Made by a program: the position numbers and the translations under genes. The notes below the pieces were generated by a model that saw only the letters and a program-made list of their open reading frames with translations, had not been told where the DNA came from and did no database searches. Below are positions 29,371 to 51,893 of a DNA stretch of 64,000 bases, in pieces. Positions within the stretch are counted from its first letter, which is position 1. Each line of letters starts with the position of its first letter. Source of the stretch: Phycisphaerae bacterium (GTDB taxonomy: Bacteria > Planctomycetota > Phycisphaerae > UBA1845); assembly GCA_963666835.2 (NCBI GenBank), contig CAXXGO010000001.1, positions 1,152,001-1,216,000 of the forward strand. Direction: 5' to 3'.

Positions 29371-30143
29371 AAAAGGGGTCGGGAGTCTTTGTTGACATGC
29401 CCGAGGGGGTGTGGTAGGAACCGAGCATGCCAAGACGACCTCGAATGGCGATGGGTGGACTGGCGTATCACGTTCTGAACCGGGCGGTGGGGCGTGGTTC
29501 GCTCTTCGACAAGGCGGCCGACTACGAAGCGTTCGAGCAAGTGCTGGATCAGGCTTGGAGGCGGGTGCCGACACGGATCGCGTGCTACTGCCTTATGCCA
29601 AACCACTGGCACATGGTCCTGTGGCCGCGAGAGGACGGGGAGCTGTCGGAGTTCATGCGCTGGCTCACCGTGACGCACGCCCAGCGATGGCACGCCCACC
29701 ATGGCACGGCCGGGCGGGGTCCGATCTACCAAGGGCGGTTCAAGTCGTTCCCCATCCAGCAGGATGACCACTTTCTCAACGTGTGCCGTTATGTCGAGCA
29801 GAACGCCTTGCGGGCGAGTCTGACCGATAGGGCGGAGGACTGGAGATGGGGCAGCTTGTGGCGACGCCGCAACGTCAAGGCCGAGGGGCGGGCGTTTTTG
29901 CTATCGCCGTTGGACTGGCCGGTGCCTCCGCCGCGGAACTGGCTGGCGTTGGTGAACCGGTCCCAAACTGCGGGGGAGGTCGATGCGGTGCAGCGGTCGG
30001 TGCTGCGTGGGGCTCCGTTCGGCGACGAAGGATGGCAGAGGCGGACGGCCGCGCGGCTCGGATTGGACTCGACCTTACGACCACGAGGTCGCCCGAAGAT
30101 CGTCAAGCCCGAGCGTGGCCAATAAAGACTCCCGACCCCTTTT
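29371..30143 (+). mobile_element. Y1 transposase element with 20-bp perfect terminal inverted repeats
   Basis: AAAAGGGGTCGGGAGTCTTT (29371-29390) and AAAGACTCCCGACCCCTTTT (30124-30143) enclose only the transposase gene. Confidence 0.8.
29427..30125 (+). CDS. REP-associated-type (RAYT/IS200-like) HUH Y1 tyrosine transposase
   Basis: MPRRPR, YHVLNR, YCLMPNHWH (HUH), QGRFKS, RYVEQN (catalytic Tyr), WRWGS. Confidence 0.92.
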   Translation: MPRRPRMAMGGLAYHVLNRAVGRGSLFDKAADYEAFEQVLDQAWRRVPTRIACYCLMPNHWHMVLWPREDGELSEFMRWLTVTHAQRWHAHHGTAGRGPIYQGRFKSFPIQQDDHFLNVCRYVEQNALRASLTDRAEDWRWGSLWRRRNVKAEGRAFLLSPLDWPVPPPRNWLALVNRSQTAGEVDAVQRSVLRGAPFGDEGWQRRTAARLGLDSTLRPRGRPKIVKPERGQ

Positions 30144-41214: not shown

Positions 41215-43851
41215 TTAGGGCGTCGGGCCGTGAAACTCGAGCAGGAACAGGGCGAAATCGATAAGGTCGACGTCGCCGTCGTTGTCCAGGTCGGCGCTTG
41301 CCAATCCGCCGAGCATGATCGACCTGTAAGCCTCAACAACATGACTGCTGGAGCCGCAATCCAGCACCGCCGCGTCCGAGGCCTGCAGCCTGATCGTGTA
41401 GGCGCATGCCGGCAGACCGGCAGTGTCCCAGGTGGCCAGAAGCCCGGAGGCGTTCAGCATCGTTGGTCCCGCGATGACGTGCCAATCGTCATACGGCCCG
41501 CCGGTCACGGCCAGCGTCCAAGTGTCGAGGTTGTTGTCGAAGACTTCACCGTGAATCTCGATACTCGCTCCCGGCGCGAAGACCTCGCAGTTCTCTGGAG
41601 CGGTGAGGCGGGCAACTGGAGCGGTGTTGTCTACGGTGACTGTCAAGCTCGTGGTAGCTGCATTTCCGCACTCGGTTTCTCCGACTACCCGCAGTTCGTA
41701 TTCTCCGTCTGCAAGCCCCATCTCAACCGTACTCCAGGAGGCCAACCTGCCCTCGATTATCGGGGACGTATAGACGGCCGTGTGCGGATCGACCGGCCAC
41801 CAGGTTCCGCCGCCCGCCGGCCGGTAGCTGACGGTGTAGTCGGCGAAGCAGGACTGCGTCCAGGCGGTGCCATGGAAACACACCCAACCACCGTACACCC
41901 TGCCGTTCTCCGGCGTGCTGACTTTCAGGCTGTCGAATTCGGTGGGGTTGTAGACCAGGGTCGAGTCGCTTTCGCTCAGGCCACACTCGTTCTCGGCGAC
42001 GATGCGGACGTCGTAAAAGTCCTGCGTGAGGAGGCTTGTATCCCAGTTGTACAGCACTCCGGATCGTGCCCCGAAAGCCGTAGCTACGTCGACCCAGCTT
42101 GAAGTGCCGCTACGTCGGGTTTCGAGCCGATCGCGCACGTACGTTCCGTCCGGGTCATCGACCGAGCCGGTGATATCAATCGAACCGCACGCGCACTCGA
42201 GGGCGGCGGGCGAGTCGATGCTCACCACCGGCGGTGTGGTGTCGCCGCAAGAAGCCCCCGCGGAGCCCGGGCGGTCAAAGTAGATTGTGCGGAAGTCGGG
42301 ATCGAGGCTGAGGTACATCGCGCCGTGGCTGAAGAGCTCACCGGCCAGCGGCGGAAGATAGCCGATTGCGGTGTCACTACCGGTGTACACGTCGTAGTCG
42401 TTGAAGATGGTCGGGTCGCTCCAAGCGCCGGGAGCGAAGCCGGCGCGTGTGCGGTAATACATCGGATCGAACTCGCCGGCTTCAGCCTGGTAGATGATGG
42501 CGGTACCCGCGCCGTTGCGTGCATCGACATCCGGTTCGAAGTAGCCGAATACACTAGAACCATCCGGAACGGCGAGTGTGCCGGGACTCCACGAGGCGCC
42601 GCAGTCGTAGCTGATCCCGTAGCGGATCCCGGTGCCATTGCTATACGGATACTCAAAGGCACACATAATAGCGTCCTCATAGGCTGAGATAGCCGTGGTT
42701 CGGAAACTGCCGGCTCCGGTCTCGATCGTCCAGTCGGTCCAACCGGTTTCACTGTGCCCCAAGACGTGGATGTTGCCGTCATTGCCCGTGTACGATACGT
42801 AGATAAACTCTGCGCAATTATCACGGTTGTTGTCCCAGGTCATATCCAGCCCGAACTCGGGGTTGCTGCCGGCGGGGGAATCCTCGACGAAAGTAGTGCC
42901 GTCGTCGGCTGCATCGTAAGCCCAGCGCAACACGTCGTTGTCCTGGATGATCGCGTAGTAGATGCGATTGTCGAAGTCGTCGGCGTTGGAAGCTAGCGCC
43001 ACCTCTTCAACCGCATTCGCGCCGGCATCGAAAACCAATTGATATCCGTAGCTGCCGTCGATTCCACCGGTGCTCACCAGGCAGCGCCGAATCCGCGCCT
43101 CGTCAGTAGTGTTGCCGGCAACATAGGCGACGTAGACGTAGTCGTCACTAACGGCGCAATCCACATCGATCATGCCGACTGAGCTCGAAAACGAGTACGA
43201 CTCGGACCACGTTAGGCCGGAGTCGACAGAGATACTAATGCTCCAAGCGCTGTCCCCCGTTGTCGATCCCCAACGGACGGCGGTAAACAGGTTGCCGCTC
43301 TCGGCATCGTAGTCGAGGTTCATCGTCTGGGCCTTATCACGTGTCCCGCCGATACGGCGGTCGAGTCCGCGCGAGCCCGACAACGCCCGCGGGACTTTCC
43401 AAGCAATCCCCAACCCCAGGGGTGCTGCGGCTTCCTCCAGCTTGCGTAACTGCGCGAGCGCAAGCTCGTAGTTTCCGCGGTTCCACAGGGCGGCGATACT
43501 CGTAGCCGCCTCGTGATCGGCGTTGCTTGCCGCGCTGCCCAGCTCCAGCTCGATGTGTGCGTTGGCGCGTTCGTCGAGCGTCAGATTGGCCAGTTGCTCC
43601 CACAGCGCCAGGGGCGTATCGACAGGCTCCCGCTCCGCGGCGGTATCGCGCACGTCAACCAGGTCTGAACCGGGACGGGCTCCCACGTCGATCGGGTACA
43701 ACGCGTCGTCCAATCCCGACGATTCGATCGCTAATCCTGCACTGGCGCCGGACTGATCCTCCTGGGCGACAGCGAGGCCGCCGGCTCCCGCCAGCAGAAG
43801 TAAAACCACGGAAGAGGCACAGACTCTCCCCGTCGACAGGGCGGTTAACAT
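41215..43851 (-). CDS. Large secreted protein (878 aa): propeller-like region, about three Ig-like repeats and a dockerin-like tail
   Basis: Signal peptide, AAAGGAG RBS, SVDSGLTW and SYDCGASW Asp-box-like motifs, repeated WDT..L..G.Y..R modules, ADLDNDGDVDLIDF. Confidence 0.8.
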   Translation of the reverse strand: MLTALSTGRVCASSVVLLLLAGAGGLAVAQEDQSGASAGLAIESSGLDDALYPIDVGARPGSDLVDVRDTAAEREPVDTPLALWEQLANLTLDERANAHIELELGSAASNADHEAATSIAALWNRGNYELALAQLRKLEEAAAPLGLGIAWKVPRALSGSRGLDRRIGGTRDKAQTMNLDYDAESGNLFTAVRWGSTTGDSAWSISISVDSGLTWSESYSFSSSVGMIDVDCAVSDDYVYVAYVAGNTTDEARIRRCLVSTGGIDGSYGYQLVFDAGANAVEEVALASNADDFDNRIYYAIIQDNDVLRWAYDAADDGTTFVEDSPAGSNPEFGLDMTWDNNRDNCAEFIYVSYTGNDGNIHVLGHSETGWTDWTIETGAGSFRTTAISAYEDAIMCAFEYPYSNGTGIRYGISYDCGASWSPGTLAVPDGSSVFGYFEPDVDARNGAGTAIIYQAEAGEFDPMYYRTRAGFAPGAWSDPTIFNDYDVYTGSDTAIGYLPPLAGELFSHGAMYLSLDPDFRTIYFDRPGSAGASCGDTTPPVVSIDSPAALECACGSIDITGSVDDPDGTYVRDRLETRRSGTSSWVDVATAFGARSGVLYNWDTSLLTQDFYDVRIVAENECGLSESDSTLVYNPTEFDSLKVSTPENGRVYGGWVCFHGTAWTQSCFADYTVSYRPAGGGTWWPVDPHTAVYTSPIIEGRLASWSTVEMGLADGEYELRVVGETECGNAATTSLTVTVDNTAPVARLTAPENCEVFAPGASIEIHGEVFDNNLDTWTLAVTGGPYDDWHVIAGPTMLNASGLLATWDTAGLPACAYTIRLQASDAAVLDCGSSSHVVEAYRSIMLGGLASADLDNDGDVDLIDFALFLLEFHGPTP

Positions 43852-44395: not shown

Positions 44396-45727
44396 TTACT
44401 GCTGGGCTGGGCGCGCAAAGAGAACCTTGCCGGCGACCAACAGCAACAGGGCAAGGACGGCCAGACCCCATTCGGATACCGTAGGGATTGCGTCGCCGCA
44501 TCCCGGGGCGAAGAGGTCATCGTCCGCGCCGGGGCAGACATCCACGCAATTGGCGACGCCGTCACCATCGTCGTCGGCATCCGACACGCCGCATCCGCAG
44601 ATACCGGGGACTTCCTTGTTCGCGTCCTGTGGACACTCATCGCCGCAAACGCCGTCCAAGCCGTCGCCGTCCTGGTCGCGCTCGCATGATAAGCCCACAC
44701 TGCTCGCGGTCCCCCCCAATGCCAGGCACGGACCCTCATCCAGTAGGGCGCAAGTGCCATCTGGAAGACAGCAGGGGGCTCGCAGGTCCAGGGCAATGCC
44801 GATCGGACTGCCGCCTGGCGAAGTGAGGACTACCTCAACGTTCGAGCCGTCAAGATCCGCCCGCTGGATCGTGCCCAGCTCGGAATCGGTCCAGTACATC
44901 TTGCCGGCCGCGGCATCCAATGCAATCTGCCGCGGCTCGGGCGTCCCGGCGGTAACGAGATCTTCCATGTTCGAGCCGTCCAAGTCAGCCCGGCGGATTC
45001 TGCCGGGCTGACTGCCCGCGCTCTCCACCCAATAGACCTTGCCGGCCGCCTGGTCGAGGGCGATCCCCTCGGGATACCAAAGGTCGCCGCTGTAAATGAT
45101 GTCCTCGTAATCCAACCCATCCGGGCTTGTGCGATATAGCGATGCGTGCATGGGAGCCGGCCCGCCGCCGCCCCAATCGGTTCCGTAAAACTTGCCGCTC
45201 GTCGAATCGAAAGCAATGCCACGCGGGTTCAGACCCAAGTATGTGGCTAACGCGACGTCCGATCCATCGAGGTTGGCCGAACCGAGGTGGGGGGCCGAAA
45301 TGAAGAAACACCCGGCAATCCACCCGCCGCTCCAATACAACCTTCCACCATCAGAGTCGACGACTATGCCCCACAATGGACGCCGTGCACACGAAAAAAA
45401 GTCGGGGCAGATCACAGGCGAGAAACCTATGGCCTCCGAGCCGTCCAGATTCGCCCGATAAATGTCATGGACGCCGGAGTCGTCGTACTGTGACTGGTTG
45501 TTCACCCAATACAGCTTGTTCGCCACCATATCGAGAGCGACACTCGTGGGGTTGAACGCTTCGGAGTCTGTGACGACCTGCTCAATGATGCTGCCATTCA
45601 ATCCAGCGCGATAGATGGCGTTGCTGGCGCCGTCGGTCCAATACAACCTCTGCCCGTGGGCAACTGGTGAACAGACGCCAATCACGAACAGACACCCGAC
45701 CATGCAGCAGACGTTTCGCGTATTCAT
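44396..45727 (-). CDS. Secreted YWTD (LDL-receptor class B-like) beta-propeller protein with IPTL-CTERM
   Basis: LYWTD/VYWVE/MYWTD...RADLDGS repeats; IPTVSEWGLAVLALLLLVAG; AGGAGG RBS; TTGACT-17-CACAAT at 45790-45818. Confidence 0.88.
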   Translation of the reverse strand: MNTRNVCCMVGCLFVIGVCSPVAHGQRLYWTDGASNAIYRAGLNGSIIEQVVTDSEAFNPTSVALDMVANKLYWVNNQSQYDDSGVHDIYRANLDGSEAIGFSPVICPDFFSCARRPLWGIVVDSDGGRLYWSGGWIAGCFFISAPHLGSANLDGSDVALATYLGLNPRGIAFDSTSGKFYGTDWGGGGPAPMHASLYRTSPDGLDYEDIIYSGDLWYPEGIALDQAAGKVYWVESAGSQPGRIRRADLDGSNMEDLVTAGTPEPRQIALDAAAGKMYWTDSELGTIQRADLDGSNVEVVLTSPGGSPIGIALDLRAPCCLPDGTCALLDEGPCLALGGTASSVGLSCERDQDGDGLDGVCGDECPQDANKEVPGICGCGVSDADDDGDGVANCVDVCPGADDDLFAPGCGDAIPTVSEWGLAVLALLLLVAGKVLFARPAQQ

Positions 45728-45938
45728 CTGACCCCTCCTGAAGAGAATACCGTCACGATACCGAACCTCGAATGTACAGCAGTACACACATTGTGGCATC
45801 CTGGCATCTGGAAGTCAACGTTTTCCCGTATCGGGCGGACAGATGCCCGTTTCTGAACGGAAACCGCGTTTTTCGGACCATTAGGGCGGATCCGTCGGAC
45901 GGGGCGGTAGAAGACCGCAGCTCCGGCTGAGGACCATT

Positions 45939-46139
45939 GCGACACGTTCCCGTCGGCCCCGCGGACGCCGTTTTGCCGCTTCAACCGCTCAAACAACTCC
46001 ACCGCCGACGGTCGACCGGCGGATAGAGAGCCTGAAACGCCTTGGTTTGGAGTGCCGAAGCCTGGGTAGGATCCGCTCCGCGGACCGTTCGGTGCGACGT
46101 TCTGTCCCGGGGTGGTCCGCACAGCGGACCCTGCCCCAA
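45939..46139. repeat. 201-bp direct repeat, copy 1
   Basis: Matches 48085-48285 with two mismatches by manual alignment; contains an inverted GTAG-type REP pair. Confidence 0.92.
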
Positions 46140-46216: not shown

Positions 46217-46906
46217 CTACAGGATGATGTTCAACTCCAAGAGCTTCTCCCGCGCGGCTTCGAGGCCCGTGGTGTCACAGGCAGTGCGCTCGAGAACACG
46301 CCTATCCTCTTCGCTTAGCGTGATCGGTGCATGTGCGTTGTCCATTCTCCGGACGAACAGACGCTGGATCAACTCGATTTCATCATCAACCAGATCGAGT
46401 TCCTCGGTCCAACACTCGATCGCCTCCTTCGGCTCCAAGATATGGTTCCGAATCAACGCGCCACCATGCGCGATCACCGAATCCCAATCGTCAGCGGATT
46501 CAACTGGTCCATTTGTGCGATCGGCCCAGAAAGCCGTCGTGATGACCGGGATGGGCTTACCGTGGTATTCCTCGATCATGTACTGAAGCGCTTGACCGTA
46601 GGCCAATGACTGCAGGTTTGATGGCATGCCTTCGAAGTAGCGGTCAACATCATAGTGTATGTGTCTACGGAACGGACTGCGCTCGCTGTTGGTCTCAAAG
46701 AAGACCGCAACCAGTGCGGTCTCGGAGAACGCGATCGTCCCGTTCATACTCTGCCCATTCCTGACGCAGTAGTTCGTCCCGTCCATGGTCTGTTCGTGCC
46801 GAAAATCTGGAAATCGCGCAGTGCTAATACTGTGCGTGAGCATGGCAAGCATGGTACCGCGCCACAGCGTCGGATAATCGGGCAGCCTGTCAATGTTCCT
46901 GGCCAT
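46217..46906 (-). CDS. Probable immunity protein for the upstream HNH toxin
   Basis: 229 aa, no signal peptide, 76 bp downstream of the toxin on the same strand. Function inferred from position. Confidence 0.65.
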   Translation of the reverse strand: MARNIDRLPDYPTLWRGTMLAMLTHSISTARFPDFRHEQTMDGTNYCVRNGQSMNGTIAFSETALVAVFFETNSERSPFRRHIHYDVDRYFEGMPSNLQSLAYGQALQYMIEEYHGKPIPVITTAFWADRTNGPVESADDWDSVIAHGGALIRNHILEPKEAIECWTEELDLVDDEIELIQRLFVRRMDNAHAPITLSEEDRRVLERTACDTTGLEAAREKLLELNIIL

Positions 46907-46982
46907 GATCTGTCCTTATTCTCGCTTTACCAAGGTCTGTTTGTGCGCTTGGTGGAATCGGAGACGACCTCGTGCAGACTTG

Positions 46983-47981
46983 CTAGTGGTCGGATTTCAC
47001 CGTGTTCTCGGCACGAGATAGTACCTGTGCATTCGTGTAGCTATTCGTTCCGCCCTTGCTCTTCGGTACTACGTGGTCTACTGCCCACTCATTCGGTTCA
47101 TGCGTGCTTCCTGGCCTGCACGGAGTCGGCTGTGTCAGTTCGGCGCCTGACTTATCAGATCTGACGACTCCTCGGTTCCGTGATCTATTGGATGCTATGA
47201 TCTCCGCTCTCTGTGCGCGTGTAAAGTCCTTGCCCGCGGCAACGCCCGGTGGATCGGTTAGGTGACCGTAGAGGCCGCGCCTGGCCCAAAGGGCTGCCGC
47301 ACGAAGGCCGAGGCCAGATCCGATGACTCCGATACCCGCCGTAAAGGTGTCAAACACGCCGAGAGAGAGTTCATGATAATCCTGTGCATCTTGAATCTCC
47401 GCCTGCCCGTAGGCAAAGCCCACCGCGCTTGTTCCCAGACCCAGAGCTGCGAACAAAGCTGCCCCGGCCGGCCCGGATGCGACAATCGGAGCGCCGATGA
47501 GCACCGCTGCGAGACCTGTGAGACCCGTCAGGCCCGCATTCCTTGAGATCAAGATAGCGATTTCTGTGGCCGTGAGATCGTGTTTGTCGCGACTTCCGAT
47601 CAGGTCGATGGCGGTTCGGGTCGCGCCGATCATTGATCCGGAAACATACGCTCCGATGCTGACGGTAGCCAGAATCTCCCCCTTCGACCACAACCCACTC
47701 GGGTCCGTGCCGTTGCCGGGGTTGCTTTGCAGGTATTCGTAGAAGTTCATGCCGTCGGCGAATTGGAGTTCGTAGGCGGCGGAGACGGTGACTACGGGGT
47801 TGCGGGCCTGGTAGGACAGGGCCTGCTGGAGTACGATCCCGACGCCGTTGGGGTCGCGTTGCAGGAACCTGCCGGTTTCCGGATCGAAAACCGCCGACGC
47901 CGGGGTGACACTCCCGCCGAGCAGGATCGCCAGCAGCGTTACGATCGAGAGAAACCGCCGATTACGATGCATGAATCTCAT
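46983..47981 (-). CDS. Signal-peptide mini-Rhs polymorphic toxin with C-terminal HNH nuclease
   Basis: Signal peptide ending ASA|V; FDPETGRFLQRDP...GMNFYEYLQSNP...DPSGL Rhs core; DHVVPKSKGGTNSYTNAQVLSRAEN HNH motif. Confidence 0.88.
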   Translation of the reverse strand: MRFMHRNRRFLSIVTLLAILLGGSVTPASAVFDPETGRFLQRDPNGVGIVLQQALSYQARNPVVTVSAAYELQFADGMNFYEYLQSNPGNGTDPSGLWSKGEILATVSIGAYVSGSMIGATRTAIDLIGSRDKHDLTATEIAILISRNAGLTGLTGLAAVLIGAPIVASGPAGAALFAALGLGTSAVGFAYGQAEIQDAQDYHELSLGVFDTFTAGIGVIGSGLGLRAAALWARRGLYGHLTDPPGVAAGKDFTRAQRAEIIASNRSRNRGVVRSDKSGAELTQPTPCRPGSTHEPNEWAVDHVVPKSKGGTNSYTNAQVLSRAENTVKSDH

Positions 47982-49609
47982 TGTCTTGCTCCTTGTCGGG
48001 GGAATGACGGATGCGGTACGGTCGGGACGCTGTATGCGTTATACGGCGACCATTGGGCGTTCGAGCCGATGGGAGGCTCCGGCCGCGACACGTTCCCGTC
48101 GGGCCCGCGGACGCCGTTTTGCCGCTTCATCCGCTCAAACAACTCCACCGCCGACGGTCGACCGGCGGATAGAGAGCCTGAAACGCCTTGGTTTGGAGTG
48201 CCGAAGCCTGGGTAGGATCCGCTCCGCGGACCGTTCGGTGCGACGTTCTGTCCCGGGGTGGTCCGCACAGCGGACCCTGCCCCAATTGATTGCAGATGCC
48301 ACTGGGCGTTTGGCGCAACCGGGAAGTTGGACACCTGCGGGGGCGAACTCTGTTGCGTCTCGTCCCGCTTCTTCGGATATAGAATCGCCCGTGCGTAGCG
48401 TGCCAACGCCTCGTTACGCCGGTTCGTTTCCTCGAGCCAGGCGTTCATTGATGTGGGTGACCGGTTGTCGACGTCAAGGAAGTCGAACGCACTCGATGAT
48501 TGCGGAACGGGATACCCCGGTACCGCGAACGCACCGGTGGAAGTCGGCGGCCCGAATCCGGATTGCCGGCTACTGGCCGCATACGCCGTCGGCACGACCG
48601 GCATACCGGGCACCATCAGCCGCGGATCGGTCCAGCGCCGCCGCTCGTGCCTCTGATACGCATCCTCTACTTCCTGCGCGAGTCTCTCGGCCCGGCGCTG
48701 GGCCTCCAGGTTGGCAATCACTTGCGAGGTGTGGCGATATTGAAAGTTCGCCGCGTAGTTTCTGGGTGACAACTTTATGGCAGTTTCGTAGCAGTGCAGC
48801 GCATCGTGAAGCCGGCCGGAGAAGAAGAGGTTGTCGCCCCGCGTGGTCATGAAGACGGCCAGCTCCCCGCGCGGCGAGAGGGACTTCAGGAAGTTACTGC
48901 TGTCTCGCTCGGCGGCGTTCCACTCCCGCGGCCAGGTTCTGTAGGATTCGTCCGAGTAGCTGCCGTACCCGCGGCTTGTCCCTTCGATGTTGAATCGCTC
49001 GCCGGTCTCGGGGTCGTCCCAACGCAGAAAGCTGTGCTCGGCCGTGGTGACCAGCTTGAGCGGATACCCCAGTCGCCGCCCGATGGCGATATACAGCACC
49101 GGCATCGACGTACACGTCCCGCCGGTTCCTTCGAGCAAGCCGTTGATGAACAGGTCTTGAGACCGGGTGAAGTCGAAGCGATTGGGGTCGTCCTCCGGTG
49201 GGATCTGGTCCGGGTTGTAGCGGACGCCAAGGTCCTGCTGGAGGGTCATGGCCATCATGAGCATGGCGAACTCGCCCCAGGAGTGGTTGTACTCCTCCGG
49301 ATTCTGCTCGAAACGGTAGCGGTGCCGGTTCGTCTCGTAGGCGACGTATGCCGCCCAGGCGTCGAGTTTGGCGAGCAGGGCCTTGCGGTCGATGCGCTCG
49401 GAGCCGGGGAGTCCCTCGGTGCAGATGAGGTTCATCGTGGCGATGTCGACCTTGGCCAGGTCACGCTCGGGCAGGTTGATGAGTTCCTCGAGCGTCAGCG
49501 ACTCCTCGGGTATCTCCGCATCCGCCCGGGTCGTGCCAGGCTGGATCGCGGCCGCGAGGGCCAACACAAGGACGCCCGCTCGGTACGTTCTGACACACAT
49601 TATCCCCAT
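47978..49609 (-). CDS. Secreted transglutaminase-like (SirB1/Transglut_core2-related) protein with a TPR-like segment and low-complexity tail
   Basis: Signal peptide; GTCTSMPVLYIAIGRRLGYPL...HSFLRWD...FNIE; ALHCYETAIKLSP. ATGA overlap with the toxin gene. Confidence 0.8.
   Translation of the reverse strand: MGIMCVRTYRAGVLVLALAAAIQPGTTRADAEIPEESLTLEELINLPERDLAKVDIATMNLICTEGLPGSERIDRKALLAKLDAWAAYVAYETNRHRYRFEQNPEEYNHSWGEFAMLMMAMTLQQDLGVRYNPDQIPPEDDPNRFDFTRSQDLFINGLLEGTGGTCTSMPVLYIAIGRRLGYPLKLVTTAEHSFLRWDDPETGERFNIEGTSRGYGSYSDESYRTWPREWNAAERDSSNFLKSLSPRGELAVFMTTRGDNLFFSGRLHDALHCYETAIKLSPRNYAANFQYRHTSQVIANLEAQRRAERLAQEVEDAYQRHERRRWTDPRLMVPGMPVVPTAYAASSRQSGFGPPTSTGAFAVPGYPVPQSSSAFDFLDVDNRSPTSMNAWLEETNRRNEALARYARAILYPKKRDETQQSSPPQVSNFPVAPNAQWHLQSIGAGSAVRTTPGQNVAPNGPRSGSYPGFGTPNQGVSGSLSAGRPSAVELFERMKRQNGVRGPDGNVSRPEPPIGSNAQWSPYNAYSVPTVPHPSFPRQGARQ
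48085..48285. repeat. 201-bp direct repeat, copy 2, inside the 3' part of the transglutaminase-like ORF
   Basis: Matches 45939-46139. Confidence 0.92.
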
Positions 49610-49979
49610 GATTCACCTCAATAGTTGACAAGAACTGCGATGCGTCTTTAATATTCAAGCCATCGGCGTGGTTCCTGCGCGGCTTTAGATAGGCGAGATT
49701 TTCGTCAATCGAGGTTGGATTGGCCGGACCCATGGAGATGTCGGTCCGCACGGTGGCGGAGGCGGAGTGAGGGAGCCTCCAACCGCCCGCGGGCCGGGTT
49801 CAGCCTTTTGTCACGTGGGGGATTCGCTATCGTGCTTTGATCGTTGCGATCACGATTAAGAAGGTGTCCGCCGCGCGGACTATCTAGTGCGACGTCCAGT
49901 CTCTGGTCCGCACAGCAGACCCTACCACGTAAGCCGGGGCCAGCCTTTTGTCGCGCGGGGGATTCCCTATCATGCCTTC

Positions 49980-51893
49980 ATGGCCGCGATCACGATTCAG
50001 GGAGTTACGAAACAGTTCGGGACCCAGGTGGTTCTTGAGAACGTTACCTTGGAGCTGCATCCGCGCGAGGTGGCGGGGCTCGTCGGGGCGAATGGGGCCG
50101 GCAAGACGACGCTATTCAAGGTGATCGCCGGCGAAGAAGTGCCGGATATGGGCACGGCGACGACCTCGCGCGGGCTCGATGTCGGATACCTCCGCCAAGA
50201 GCCGGAAATCTCGCTGGATCGCACGCTGCGCGAAGAGGTCGGCAGCGTGTTCGCAGAGCTGCTCGCCCTGGAGGAGCGTCTCCACAAGGTGGCGGACGAG
50301 ATGGCCGCCAAGGCCCACGACCCGAACCTCGCCGAGCTGATGGAGACCTACGACCGGATCAACAGCCGGTTCCTGGCCGCGGGTGGGCATACGTTCGAGA
50401 CGAGACTCAACGAGATTCTCGGGGGACTGGGGTTCTCGCAGGCCGACCACGTTTTGCCCATGTCGAGCCTGTCCGGAGGGCAGAAGTGCCGGGCGGCGCT
50501 GGCTAAGCTGCTGTTGGCCGATCGGCGGTATTTGCTGCTGGATGAGCCGACGAACCATCTCGATATCGACGCCGTGCGGTGGCTGGAGAAATTCCTGGCC
50601 GGTCATCATGGCGGAGCGGTAATCATCTCTCACGATCGCTATCTGTTGGATCGGCTCTGCGACCGGGTAATCGAACTGGACCGGCGGCGGGTGTACAGCT
50701 TCCCGGGCAACTATACGAACTATGCCCAGACCCGGGAGATCCGGATACTCACCCAGCAACGTCAATACGAGAAAGACCAGGAGTTCATCGAGAAGGAGCG
50801 GGCCTTCATCGACAAGCATCTGTCGGGGCAACGCACGAAGGAGGCCCAGGGTCGGCGGACGCGTTTGGAGCGGCGATTGAAGGCCGGAGAGTTCGTAACC
50901 GAGGCTCCCCAGGCTCGCCTGACGTCTCGTTTCAAGTTCACGCCCTCGGACCGAGAGATGACGACCGTTCTGCGCTGCGATGAGTTGGGCATGCGCTACG
51001 GCGACAACGTTCTGTTTACCGACTTGAGCTTTCAGGTGCGAACGGGGGACCGGTTCGGCATCACCGGCCCGAACGGTACGGGCAAAACCACTCTTCTGAA
51101 GATCATCCGCGGCGAGGTGAAGGCGGTATCGGGGGAGTTCACGCTCGACCCGAAGTTCCGCGTCGGATACTACGCGCAGGAAGGCGCTCTGGTGGATCCG
51201 AATCGAACGGTGTTGGATGAAGTCCGCGCAGCCCGGGACGGGTTCGGAGAGCAAGCCGCGCGGGACTACATTGCTCGCTTCATGTTCACCGGAGATTCCG
51301 TCTTCAAGCCGCTGGGGCTGCTTTCCGGGGGTGAACAATCGCGGGTGCGGCTGGCCACGTTGATCCTGACCGAGCCGGATCTGCTGATCCTGGACGAGCC
51401 CACGAACCACCTAGATATTCCAACGTGTGAGACTCTTGAGGAATCACTGGCGGCGTATCCCGGCACGATCATCACGGTCAGCCACGATCGTTACTTCCTG
51501 GACCGAATTGTCGGGCGTCTTTTGGTGATTCGACGCGAAGGGCACACGGTGTGCGCGGGCAACTACTCGGATTACATCGCTCAGGTGGAGCAGGACCGGG
51601 CCGCGACCGCCGCGCCGGCTCCCGCTTCGCCGAAGAAGCCCAAAGAAAGTCGGCCGGAACCCACCCGGCCGGCCGTCAATACCTCCAAATACGACCGACT
51701 CTCCGTTGATGAAATCGAGCTGATTGTGATCGACAAGGAGGCGGAGCTGGCCGCTCTACAGGAGCGGTTTGCCGACCCGGCCGTGTTGCGCGACCCGATC
51801 GCCCGCGAGGATCTCGAGGACAAGATCGCCGAGGTCGAGGAGGAACTGGCGATTGTCGACGCCGCCTGGCAAGAACGCGCCGATTCCGAATAA
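49980..51893 (+). CDS. ABC-F family ATP-binding protein (Uup/YheS-like)
   Basis: Two ABC cassettes (GANGAGKT, LSGGQ, LDEPTNHLD; GPNGTGKT, LSGGE), no TM segments, C-terminal coiled coil. Confidence 0.93.
   Translation: MAAITIQGVTKQFGTQVVLENVTLELHPREVAGLVGANGAGKTTLFKVIAGEEVPDMGTATTSRGLDVGYLRQEPEISLDRTLREEVGSVFAELLALEERLHKVADEMAAKAHDPNLAELMETYDRINSRFLAAGGHTFETRLNEILGGLGFSQADHVLPMSSLSGGQKCRAALAKLLLADRRYLLLDEPTNHLDIDAVRWLEKFLAGHHGGAVIISHDRYLLDRLCDRVIELDRRRVYSFPGNYTNYAQTREIRILTQQRQYEKDQEFIEKERAFIDKHLSGQRTKEAQGRRTRLERRLKAGEFVTEAPQARLTSRFKFTPSDREMTTVLRCDELGMRYGDNVLFTDLSFQVRTGDRFGITGPNGTGKTTLLKIIRGEVKAVSGEFTLDPKFRVGYYAQEGALVDPNRTVLDEVRAARDGFGEQAARDYIARFMFTGDSVFKPLGLLSGGEQSRVRLATLILTEPDLLILDEPTNHLDIPTCETLEESLAAYPGTIITVSHDRYFLDRIVGRLLVIRREGHTVCAGNYSDYIAQVEQDRAATAAPAPASPKKPKESRPEPTRPAVNTSKYDRLSVDEIELIVIDKEAELAALQERFADPAVLRDPIAREDLEDKIAEVEEELAIVDAAWQERADSE

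Follow-up and report, generated by a model that had tools for sequence, protein, structure and literature searches.

Gene organization of the locus

The window analysed here is a 64,000-nucleotide (nt) stretch of contig CAXXGO010000001.1 (positions 1,152,001-1,216,000; assembly GCA_963666835.2) from a Phycisphaerae bacterium (UBA1845). Three of its genes lie head to tail on the minus strand as one unit and encode proteins of 543, 332 and 229 amino acids (aa). The first (47978..49609), which we call the partner gene, encodes an exported protein with a transglutaminase-like domain and tetratricopeptide repeats (TPR), as indicated by Pfam, alignment and an AlphaFold2 model. The second (46983-47981) encodes a predicted toxin, in which the open reading frame (ORF) and its domain matches point to a signal peptide, an Rhs-associated core alone, a hydrophobic linker and an HNH nuclease domain. 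The third (46217..46906) encodes a protein with no export signal and of no known family, which by gene association is the likely cognate immunity protein. We suggest that these genes probably form a polymorphic toxin unit of a widespread, unnamed type with a dedicated partner. The ORFs lie where the original prediction for this DNA had placed them, and the overlap it described between the partner TGA and the toxin ATG is the shared ATGA, with GGAG located 8-11 nt before the toxin ATG. Scans for sigma-70 promoters and terminators gave no signal beyond that of shuffled sequence.

The N-terminus of the toxin combines a basic n-region with a hydrophobic stretch at aa 7-34 (Kyte-Doolittle 19-residue peak 1.97), which we read by eye, as a heuristic call, as a Sec signal peptide of aa 1-30 (47892..47981, minus strand) ending in ASA before V. 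The Rhs core (aa 31-97; 47691..47891, minus strand) follows directly and ends in DPSGL (aa 93-97), with only 67 residues from the signal peptide to the cleavage motif. The TIGR03696 model scores 31.5 bits (E 1.9e-7) against the whole toxin, with a cut-off of 32.5, and 35.8 bits, above this cut-off, against aa 29-125 alone; the same region matches the cores of the large Rhs proteins of this genome with E down to 8.8e-13. We aligned 55 cores (alignment A5), namely the window core and those of 54 of the 63 loci described below, leaving out four very short matches and five with long insertions. TIGR03696 matches all 55, Asp43, Asp93 and Gly96 are invariant, and conservation stops at DPxG[L]. A Gln in the first core motif was considered as a transglutaminase substrate and dropped because this position varies between S, N and Q. 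No match of the toxin to RHS_repeat, PAAR, VgrG, LXG or CdiA Pfam models was obtained at E<=0.1.

Behind the core lies a Gly/Ala-rich linker of 136 aa (aa 98-233; 47283..47690, minus strand), defined by hydropathy and by relatives; it has four moderately hydrophobic segments and Gly or Ala at 46 of its 136 positions. It is common to the proteins P0002-P0004, where it precedes a NucA/NucB tip, and to P0008, where it precedes HNH, representing the same linker with different nuclease tips. The C-terminal domain (aa 234-332; 46986..47282, minus strand) is assigned to the HNH (beta-beta-alpha-metal) nucleases from sub-cut-off Pfam and NCBIfam matches and an invariant motif: PF01844 gives 19.9 bits (cut-off 21.4, E 8.4e-4), HNH_4 and the Cas9d HNH region match too, and D-H...N...N is invariant among eight aligned relatives. 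A sequence search of the PDB with the toxin returned only Cas9-HNH noise (weak similarity). The domain order of the original prediction, with a predicted signal peptide, a core directly after it, Gly/Ala-rich hydrophobic segments, an HNH motif and none of the usual Rhs, LXG or CdiA regions, is thus borne out, and the signal peptide call agrees with the layout of 54 of 63 homologues.

Conserved pairing of the partner and mini-Rhs genes

The evidence for a unit comes mainly from comparison. The four closest partner sequences were used as the query for a scan of one genome per species, which returned 194 stretches, and 78 loci were kept; their records are titled Phycisphaerae, Planctomycetia, Verrucomicrobiota and a few other phyla, although the labels of metagenome-assembled genomes (MAGs) are possibly imperfect. 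An Rhs-core ORF begins between -30 and +700 nt from the partner stop in 63 of these loci. Eight others run into a contig end, and seven loci have no downstream core, five of which hold core ORFs elsewhere in the locus. For 54 of the 63 genes, a hydrophobicity threshold picks out a strongly hydrophobic stretch among the 50 residues that precede the core, and the signal peptides of these "mini-Rhs" proteins end in a small-x-small site directly before the first core motif. Several loci hold two to five mini-Rhs genes. All-against-all clustering left only two families common across the 78 loci, that of the partner and that of the mini-Rhs, the latter with 118 ORFs in 65 loci. A third conserved family was not seen, and rhs, PAAR or VgrG genes do not recur. 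Within the family of the window, a partner homologue was found in 11 of 100 other genomes; the next gene encodes a signal peptide and an Rhs core in seven, the contig ends in two, and in the remaining two the partner is unpaired, with a mobile element downstream in one and the partner in pieces in the other.

By comparison, therefore, the gene for a transglutaminase-like/TPR protein, membrane-anchored or exported, is shown to stand directly before one or more short genes encoding a predicted signal peptide, an Rhs core and an exchangeable C-terminus. The original prediction had reckoned with an ORF that is merely the broken end of a full-length rhs gene, and with a pairing absent from other genomes. 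The hydrophobic stretches ahead of the cores and the uniform TIGR03696 matches speak against the former, the recurrence of the pair in 63 of 78 loci and in 7 of 11 genomes of the family against the latter.

Two further features tie the proteins together. Among 59 loci scored for hydrophobic N-termini, both proteins have one in 49, neither in five, and five are discordant (Fisher p = 2e-4, which is overstated since related genomes are not independent). In addition, the partner and the Rhs core occur in one chain in 8 of the 150 best partner relatives, and likewise in locus L074; seven of the eight fused chains have no signal peptide between the parts, their C-termini past DPxGL differ, and YD repeats are absent. 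No long fused partner relatives (952-2715 aa) were found, which is weak evidence. The pairing, the co-varying export signals and the natural fusions indirectly support the suggestion that the partner stands in for the "cage" or delivery apparatus of other Rhs toxins.

The exchangeable nature of the C-termini is also seen outside these loci. In a word-indexed protein search, short proteins turned up in which a signal peptide, the core and DPxGL are arranged as in the toxin but lead to another C-terminus: NucA/NucB in P0002 and P0004, a HINT domain in P0007 and an unknown domain in P0006. P0005, which has the short signal-peptide-plus-core layout, is 90% identical to the toxin over its first third and unrelated after it.

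The genome itself contains about twenty Rhs-core ORFs, located in four classical rhs arrays with many orphan tips on contigs C5 and C6 (C5:41.9-54.2 kb, C5:127-136 kb, C6:366-391 kb and C6:1059-1077 kb). Two giant Rhs proteins of 3291 and 3531 aa have RHS_repeat matches and are followed by orphan genes. One of the giants has HINT and Tox-REase-5 domains, and the array at C6:366-391 kb has a secretin/GspE pair at a distance of about 10 kb. No transglutaminase Pfam match was found in the large Rhs proteins of the genome.

Such arrays with orphans make one ask whether the short gene is only an unexpressed orphan rhs tip, kept as a recombination store for the large rhs genes and placed beside the partner incidentally. 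Short Rhs proteins are read in this manner in the literature, where 43 of them, with 2-16 repeats, are taken as unexpressed recombination material (10.1101/2024.02.26.582050), and our cassette is indeed flanked by repeats. However, the toxin gene has its own ATG with GGAG upstream, coupled to the partner stop; in the majority of the 63 loci a predicted signal peptide is joined exactly to the core; every other Rhs core of the genome has at least 160 residues ahead of it, the window toxin being the sole exception; its core is 36-44% identical to the rhs cores of its own genome as against 90% to that of P0005; and natural fusions with the partner occur. We therefore consider a silent orphan tip highly implausible.

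The partner protein

The partner has a hydrophobic N-terminus, a PF13369 (Transglut_core2) match of 27.5 bits against a cut-off of 23.5, a TPR match, and a low-complexity C-terminal part of about 200 aa; its description as a transglutaminase-like/TPR protein in the original prediction is therefore upheld. Cys166 and His192 are invariant in 73 partners from several phyla with a mean column identity of 36%, while Asn207, Glu209 and Asp220 are nearly so, and the Cys is kept in 78 of 78 loci. Typically, the domain is preceded by a basic stretch, a single long hydrophobic helix and a linker rich in Pro, Ser and Thr (62 of 73 scored), so most partners would be anchored in the inner membrane and face the periplasm. 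In the window partner the hydrophobic stretch is shorter and cleavable-looking.

In a profile search of 1.84 billion cluster representatives, the number of partner relatives was 6144 with a limit of E<=1e-3, 3174 with E<=1e-10 and 1364 with E<=1e-30. The clusters closest to the partner in the protein atlas bear the name hypothetical protein. Variants of the architecture were observed in P0015, P0016 and P0076, which have two tandem copies of the partner domain, and in P0060, in which YD-repeat sequence is followed by a transmembrane helix and then by the partner domain.

Menin is a eukaryotic, nuclear, non-catalytic scaffold, composed of a transglutaminase-like domain and a TPR "palm", that binds short peptide motifs in its central pocket. 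The AlphaFold2 model of partner aa 31-300 (predicted local distance difference test, pLDDT, 96.5) resembles it: Foldseek placed menin on top, with weak matches (best E 7.9e-3), and a Foldseek-independent aligner ranked menin 3re2_A first (Z 15.2, root-mean-square deviation 4.2, 225 of 270 residues aligned), followed by TPR proteins with Z of at most 10.7. The likeness is in the predicted fold alone, and we do not claim homology: sequence identity to menin is 12%, and the partner is exported and keeps its Cys-His pair whereas menin is nuclear and non-catalytic. A PDB sequence search with the partner returned only TPR noise. Prediction of a complex between partner aa 31-300 and core aa 29-125, with alignments as input, scored 0.00 and, having no controls, is uninformative either way.

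Two views of the partner may be taken from these data. The invariant Cys-His pair suggests that the partner catalyses a step and does not just bind; the odds that this step is a cleavage or transfer performed by these residues are, in our opinion, about even. A more specific version, which we advance tentatively, is that the Rhs core serves as a short N-terminal sorting or processing tag and that the menin-like, transglutaminase-fold partner is its dedicated membrane-bound enzyme. Alternatively, the partner may be a non-catalytic scaffold or anchor, either a cage substitute or a surface tether, that holds the core peptide in a menin-like pocket, with the Cys and His having a binding or structural role. 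The menin-like fold agrees with this, and the core retains its own two Asp, so that a second protease is unneeded; peptide-binding anchoring was also proposed for transglutaminase domains fused to RHS toxins in PMC3482391. The fused domains described there had, however, lost the catalytic residues, while in our family C166 and H192 remain invariant across several phyla despite the low mean identity. We regard a pure scaffold as possible, though doubtful.

Likely immunity protein

Metagenome contigs were scanned with an alignment of the HNH domain (window and seven relatives); from the 106 relatives detected, 80 loci were retained. In 49 of them the HNH ORF is directly followed by a homologue of the 229-aa protein (45 by script and four, L121, L122, L146 and L188, with overlapping or run-on frames); five loci are at a contig end and 26 have no such homologue. 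The N-termini at the loci with the homologue vary (Rhs cores with or without repeats, and others), and no partner homologue was found within 3 kb upstream at any of the 80 loci. The association is therefore with the nuclease tip, as is expected of its immunity protein, and the 229-aa protein is likely the cognate immunity protein of the HNH toxin, in line with the original prediction. The same absence of the partner means that the HNH tip is shared with other types of delivery, and these loci do not bear on the pairing. The HNH domain of the toxin was found to follow several other N-termini, among them PAAR and YD-repeat Rhs. A protein of 316 aa in L184 (2338-3285) is intermediate in form: about two YD repeats stand between its signal peptide and its core, and it carries the same HNH tip.

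No Pfam or NCBIfam match to the 229-aa protein was found. Its AlphaFold2 model has a pLDDT of 93.8, and a Foldseek search of the PDB with this model gave no match (best E 0.11). In 400 sampled genomes of the phylum one homologue was detected (G143), with 31% identity (L118, 1459-2169); it lies beside an insertion sequence-type transposase gene, with no toxin gene in view.

Probable exchange of toxin tips

The original prediction had noted by eye a lower GC content past DPSGL and had taken it for the mark of a swapped tip. The drop is real at third codon positions (GC3): it is 0.816 for toxin aa 1-98 and 0.786 for the partner, compared with 0.622 for the linker, 0.586 for the HNH domain and 0.694 for the immunity gene. 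Together with the divergence of P0005, public contigs strengthen the case. Those of run X1, from the same organism, agree with the window. Runs X4 and X5, from one sample, hold a related organism ("organism B") that is about 95% identical, and its contigs match the window from 48114 downwards as far as 47688, where codon 98, the last of DPSGLW, ends. Past this codon organism B has 2247 other letters and then re-enters at 48085-48596. From X4 and X5 we used only the contig that joins across 46218-47609; missing cover in this interval was not used alone. Organism B thus shares the partner tail, the signal peptide and the core with the window, differs from it in the tip, and carries after its cassette a second, partial copy of the 3' part of the partner gene.

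The window carries a comparable structure, about which the original prediction was silent. A direct repeat of 201 nt with 99% identity and sharp borders, present in just two copies genome-wide and with no strand assigned, flanks the segment of partner tail, toxin and immunity gene. Copy A (48085..48285) lies within the 3' part of the partner gene and copy B (45939..46139) lies 78 nt past the immunity gene. The tail behind copy A and the G085 partner tail are homologous, which makes A the original copy and B a displaced relic of the partner 3' end; at the position of copy B, organism B has a longer duplicate. The two copies resemble one another more closely than either resembles the related strain, and this suggests that they are still being converted to each other. 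Cassettes in L049, L072, L100, L114 and L115 are likewise followed by direct repeats of the partner 3' end. We read this pattern as tips being swapped through homologous recombination in the core and at the 3' end of the partner gene, in a manner that corresponds to C-terminal displacement at rhs loci.

The palindrome GGTCCGC-N(2-5)-GCGGACC, which looks like a repetitive extragenic palindromic (REP)-type element, is present in 37 copies in the 6-Mb genome, where far under one is expected by chance. Three copies are in the window (46113-46135, 48259-48281 and 49904-49926); one stands at the upstream edge of each 201-nt repeat, in partner coding sequence.

Export route and proposed mechanism

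In four loci (L033, L034, L071 and L093) secretin and/or GspE homologues adjoin the module; in L033 it lies between the secretin gene and gspE, and in L034 it follows the secretin gene. This is a hint, and no more, that the Sec-exported toxin leaves the cell by type II secretion. Among the 22 window ORFs scanned (28-64 kb) there is no gene of a type VI secretion system (T6SS), as the original prediction had said of the window, and neither the domains of the toxin nor these ORFs provide a PAAR, VgrG, Hcp or adaptor link.

Elsewhere in the genome, where the original prediction had not reported T6SS genes, TssC-like genes at two places and a PAAR gene (C6:2117224-2131545, C1:2068354) are present on other contigs or at a great distance, and the genome therefore has at least one contractile secretion system besides the module. 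Together with the two giant Rhs proteins, these genes allow a scheme in which a full-length YD-repeat cage takes up the core-only protein in trans, or the T6SS receives it, the partner being only a chaperone; in known Rhs proteins the core does plug the cage. Yet a Sec signal peptide directs the toxin to the periplasm, whereas T6SS cargo is loaded in the cytoplasm; the large Rhs proteins have cores and tips of their own, and the absence of recurrent rhs, PAAR and VgrG genes from the 78 loci argues in the same direction. Loading in trans is thus very improbable.

The nature of the C-termini raises another possibility: the family might serve exoenzymes in general, rather than warfare between bacteria in particular, as a secretion or pro-domain system whose N-terminal tag, the Rhs core, removes itself and is read by the partner, and the HNH member would be a special case. 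C-termini that include phospholipase A2 and a TGL-type transglutaminase, the 56 of 63 without a Pfam match, the type II secretion genes beside four modules and the lack of a conserved third (immunity) family across loci would all suit it. Here, however, the nuclease tip, the cytoplasmic protein associated with it and the tip swap between strains mark a toxin-immunity pair, and polymorphic immunity itself predicts variable downstream genes. We consider an exoenzyme system unlikely to be the explanation. Cys-rich tips were observed on some mini-Rhs proteins (L033 2201-2803 and 4937-5437; L034 5390-6139; L068, L084 and L103), and phospholipase A2 models match those of L068, L084 and L103.

Several points weigh against the toxin unit and the mechanism that we propose for it. 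Of about 89 loci, only 4 have type II secretion genes next to the module, and no secretin or GspE gene was found among the window ORFs scanned; T6SS-like genes are present elsewhere in the genome. The loci are from related genomes and are not independent, and L039 and L040 repeat G085 and G047. In about seven loci the mini-Rhs and the partner both lack export signals; therefore, Sec export is not universal. The toxin signal peptide is a heuristic call, and the Pfam HNH scores are below the gathering cut-off. Menin being a non-catalytic scaffold, the fold alone is no argument for enzyme activity of the partner. Finally, only 7 of the 63 partner-adjacent mini-Rhs have a C-terminal Pfam match (three phospholipase A2, Ntox44, TGL, VWA7_N), and the family overall may therefore carry effectors other than antibacterial toxins.

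For the toxin unit we suggest the following sequence of events. Both proteins would cross the inner membrane via Sec, and the mature toxin would begin exactly at the Rhs core. The periplasmic menin-like domain of the partner would dock the core as a tag, in place of the missing YD-repeat shell, whereupon the two invariant aspartates of the core would cleave after DPSGL; the Cys-His pair of the partner may also catalyse a step (cleavage or transfer), beyond binding. The freed linker-HNH fragment would exit the cell, possibly by a type II secretion system, pass the target's inner membrane with the aid of the Gly/Ala-rich linker and cut DNA, while the 229-aa cytoplasmic protein would shield sister cells. 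New tips would arrive by homologous recombination in the partner 3' end and the core, leaving stacked repeats.

Relation to known systems

The unit shares with the Rhs/YD-repeat toxins (T6SS Rhs effectors, TcB-TcC and WapA, the last being a Sec-dependent toxin) the core, the DPxGL motif, the two Asp, a variable tip with an immunity gene, and tips that are exchanged by recombination with displaced relics left behind. It differs from them in having no YD repeats or shell and no PAAR, VgrG or TcA link, with a dedicated partner gene instead, and in a recombination homology that includes the partner 3' end. With orphan rhs-CT and short Rhs genes it has in common the small size, the retained end of the Rhs core and the repeat-flanked cassette with an immunity gene; unlike them, it has its own start codon, a ribosome-binding site, a predicted signal peptide and an upstream partner, in a layout kept across phyla. 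As in colicins E7/E9 and Tox-HNH tips, D-H...N...N lies in a C-terminal domain of about 100 aa and a cytoplasmic protector is encoded adjacent; in contrast to these, the Pfam HNH scores are sub-cut-off, the immunity protein is of no described family, and a Gly/Ala-rich linker lies ahead of the domain. Cleavage after DPxGL has been described for Rhs and Tc proteins in 10.1101/2024.02.26.582050.

The nearest precedent is found in Zhang et al. 2012 (PMC3482391), where a fused architecture, "inactive transglutaminase-RHS", likewise ties a transglutaminase-fold domain to an Rhs-type polymorphic toxin. According to that paper, inactive transglutaminase domains of Sec-exported RHS toxins, found after a signal peptide or transmembrane helix in Verrucomicrobia among others, are proposed to be peptide-binding anchors; they are fused, have lost the catalytic residues and have a full RHS-repeat array behind them (PMC3482391). 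In our case the domain is encoded by a separate gene (or is fused without repeats), the Cys and His are invariant, and the Rhs core stands alone.

The original prediction knew of no description of such an arrangement, and none of a signal-peptide-plus-core-only Rhs with a transglutaminase/TPR partner was found in the full-text literature covered, most subscription journals lying outside this coverage. The pairing is widespread and seemingly undescribed.

Significance of the mini-Rhs module

In the usual view, Rhs toxins are cargo within a YD-repeat shell, while short Rhs genes tend to be set aside as silent spares. The module represents a conserved, apparently expressed form of Rhs in which the shell is gone and a separate protein accompanies the core, and it provides a small system for asking what the Rhs core needs to cut. 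The partner family is large and unnamed, as seen from its 1364 cluster representatives at the strictest threshold, and because 56 of 63 C-terminal domains have no Pfam match, the module marks a reservoir of untried effector domains. If the core is indeed a tag and the partner its enzyme, the logic would be comparable to that of the sortase/exosortase systems, and a large set of freely exchangeable exoenzymes and toxins would be matured and released in this way in Planctomycetota, Verrucomicrobiota and other phyla, perhaps into type II secretion; it would also mean that the Rhs autoprotease works without a shell. One carrier (L098), Planctomycetota bacterium ZRK32, is recorded as a strain with a complete chromosome and not as a MAG, so experiments would be feasible if the strain is obtainable.

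Other features of the window

Downstream of the unit, the window encodes two exported surface-type proteins (44396-45799 and 41215-43851). In one of them, low-density lipoprotein (LDL)-receptor class B repeats occur together with a sorting signal of the IPTL-CTERM type; the other is 878 aa long and has bacterial immunoglobulin domains and a dockerin-like end. An IS200-like (Y1) transposase gene is located at 29427-30125. Upstream of and at the start of an ABC-F ATPase gene (49887-51893) there is a direct repeat of 68 nt with 82% identity (49793-49860 and 49933-50000), which may be a leader or regulatory element.

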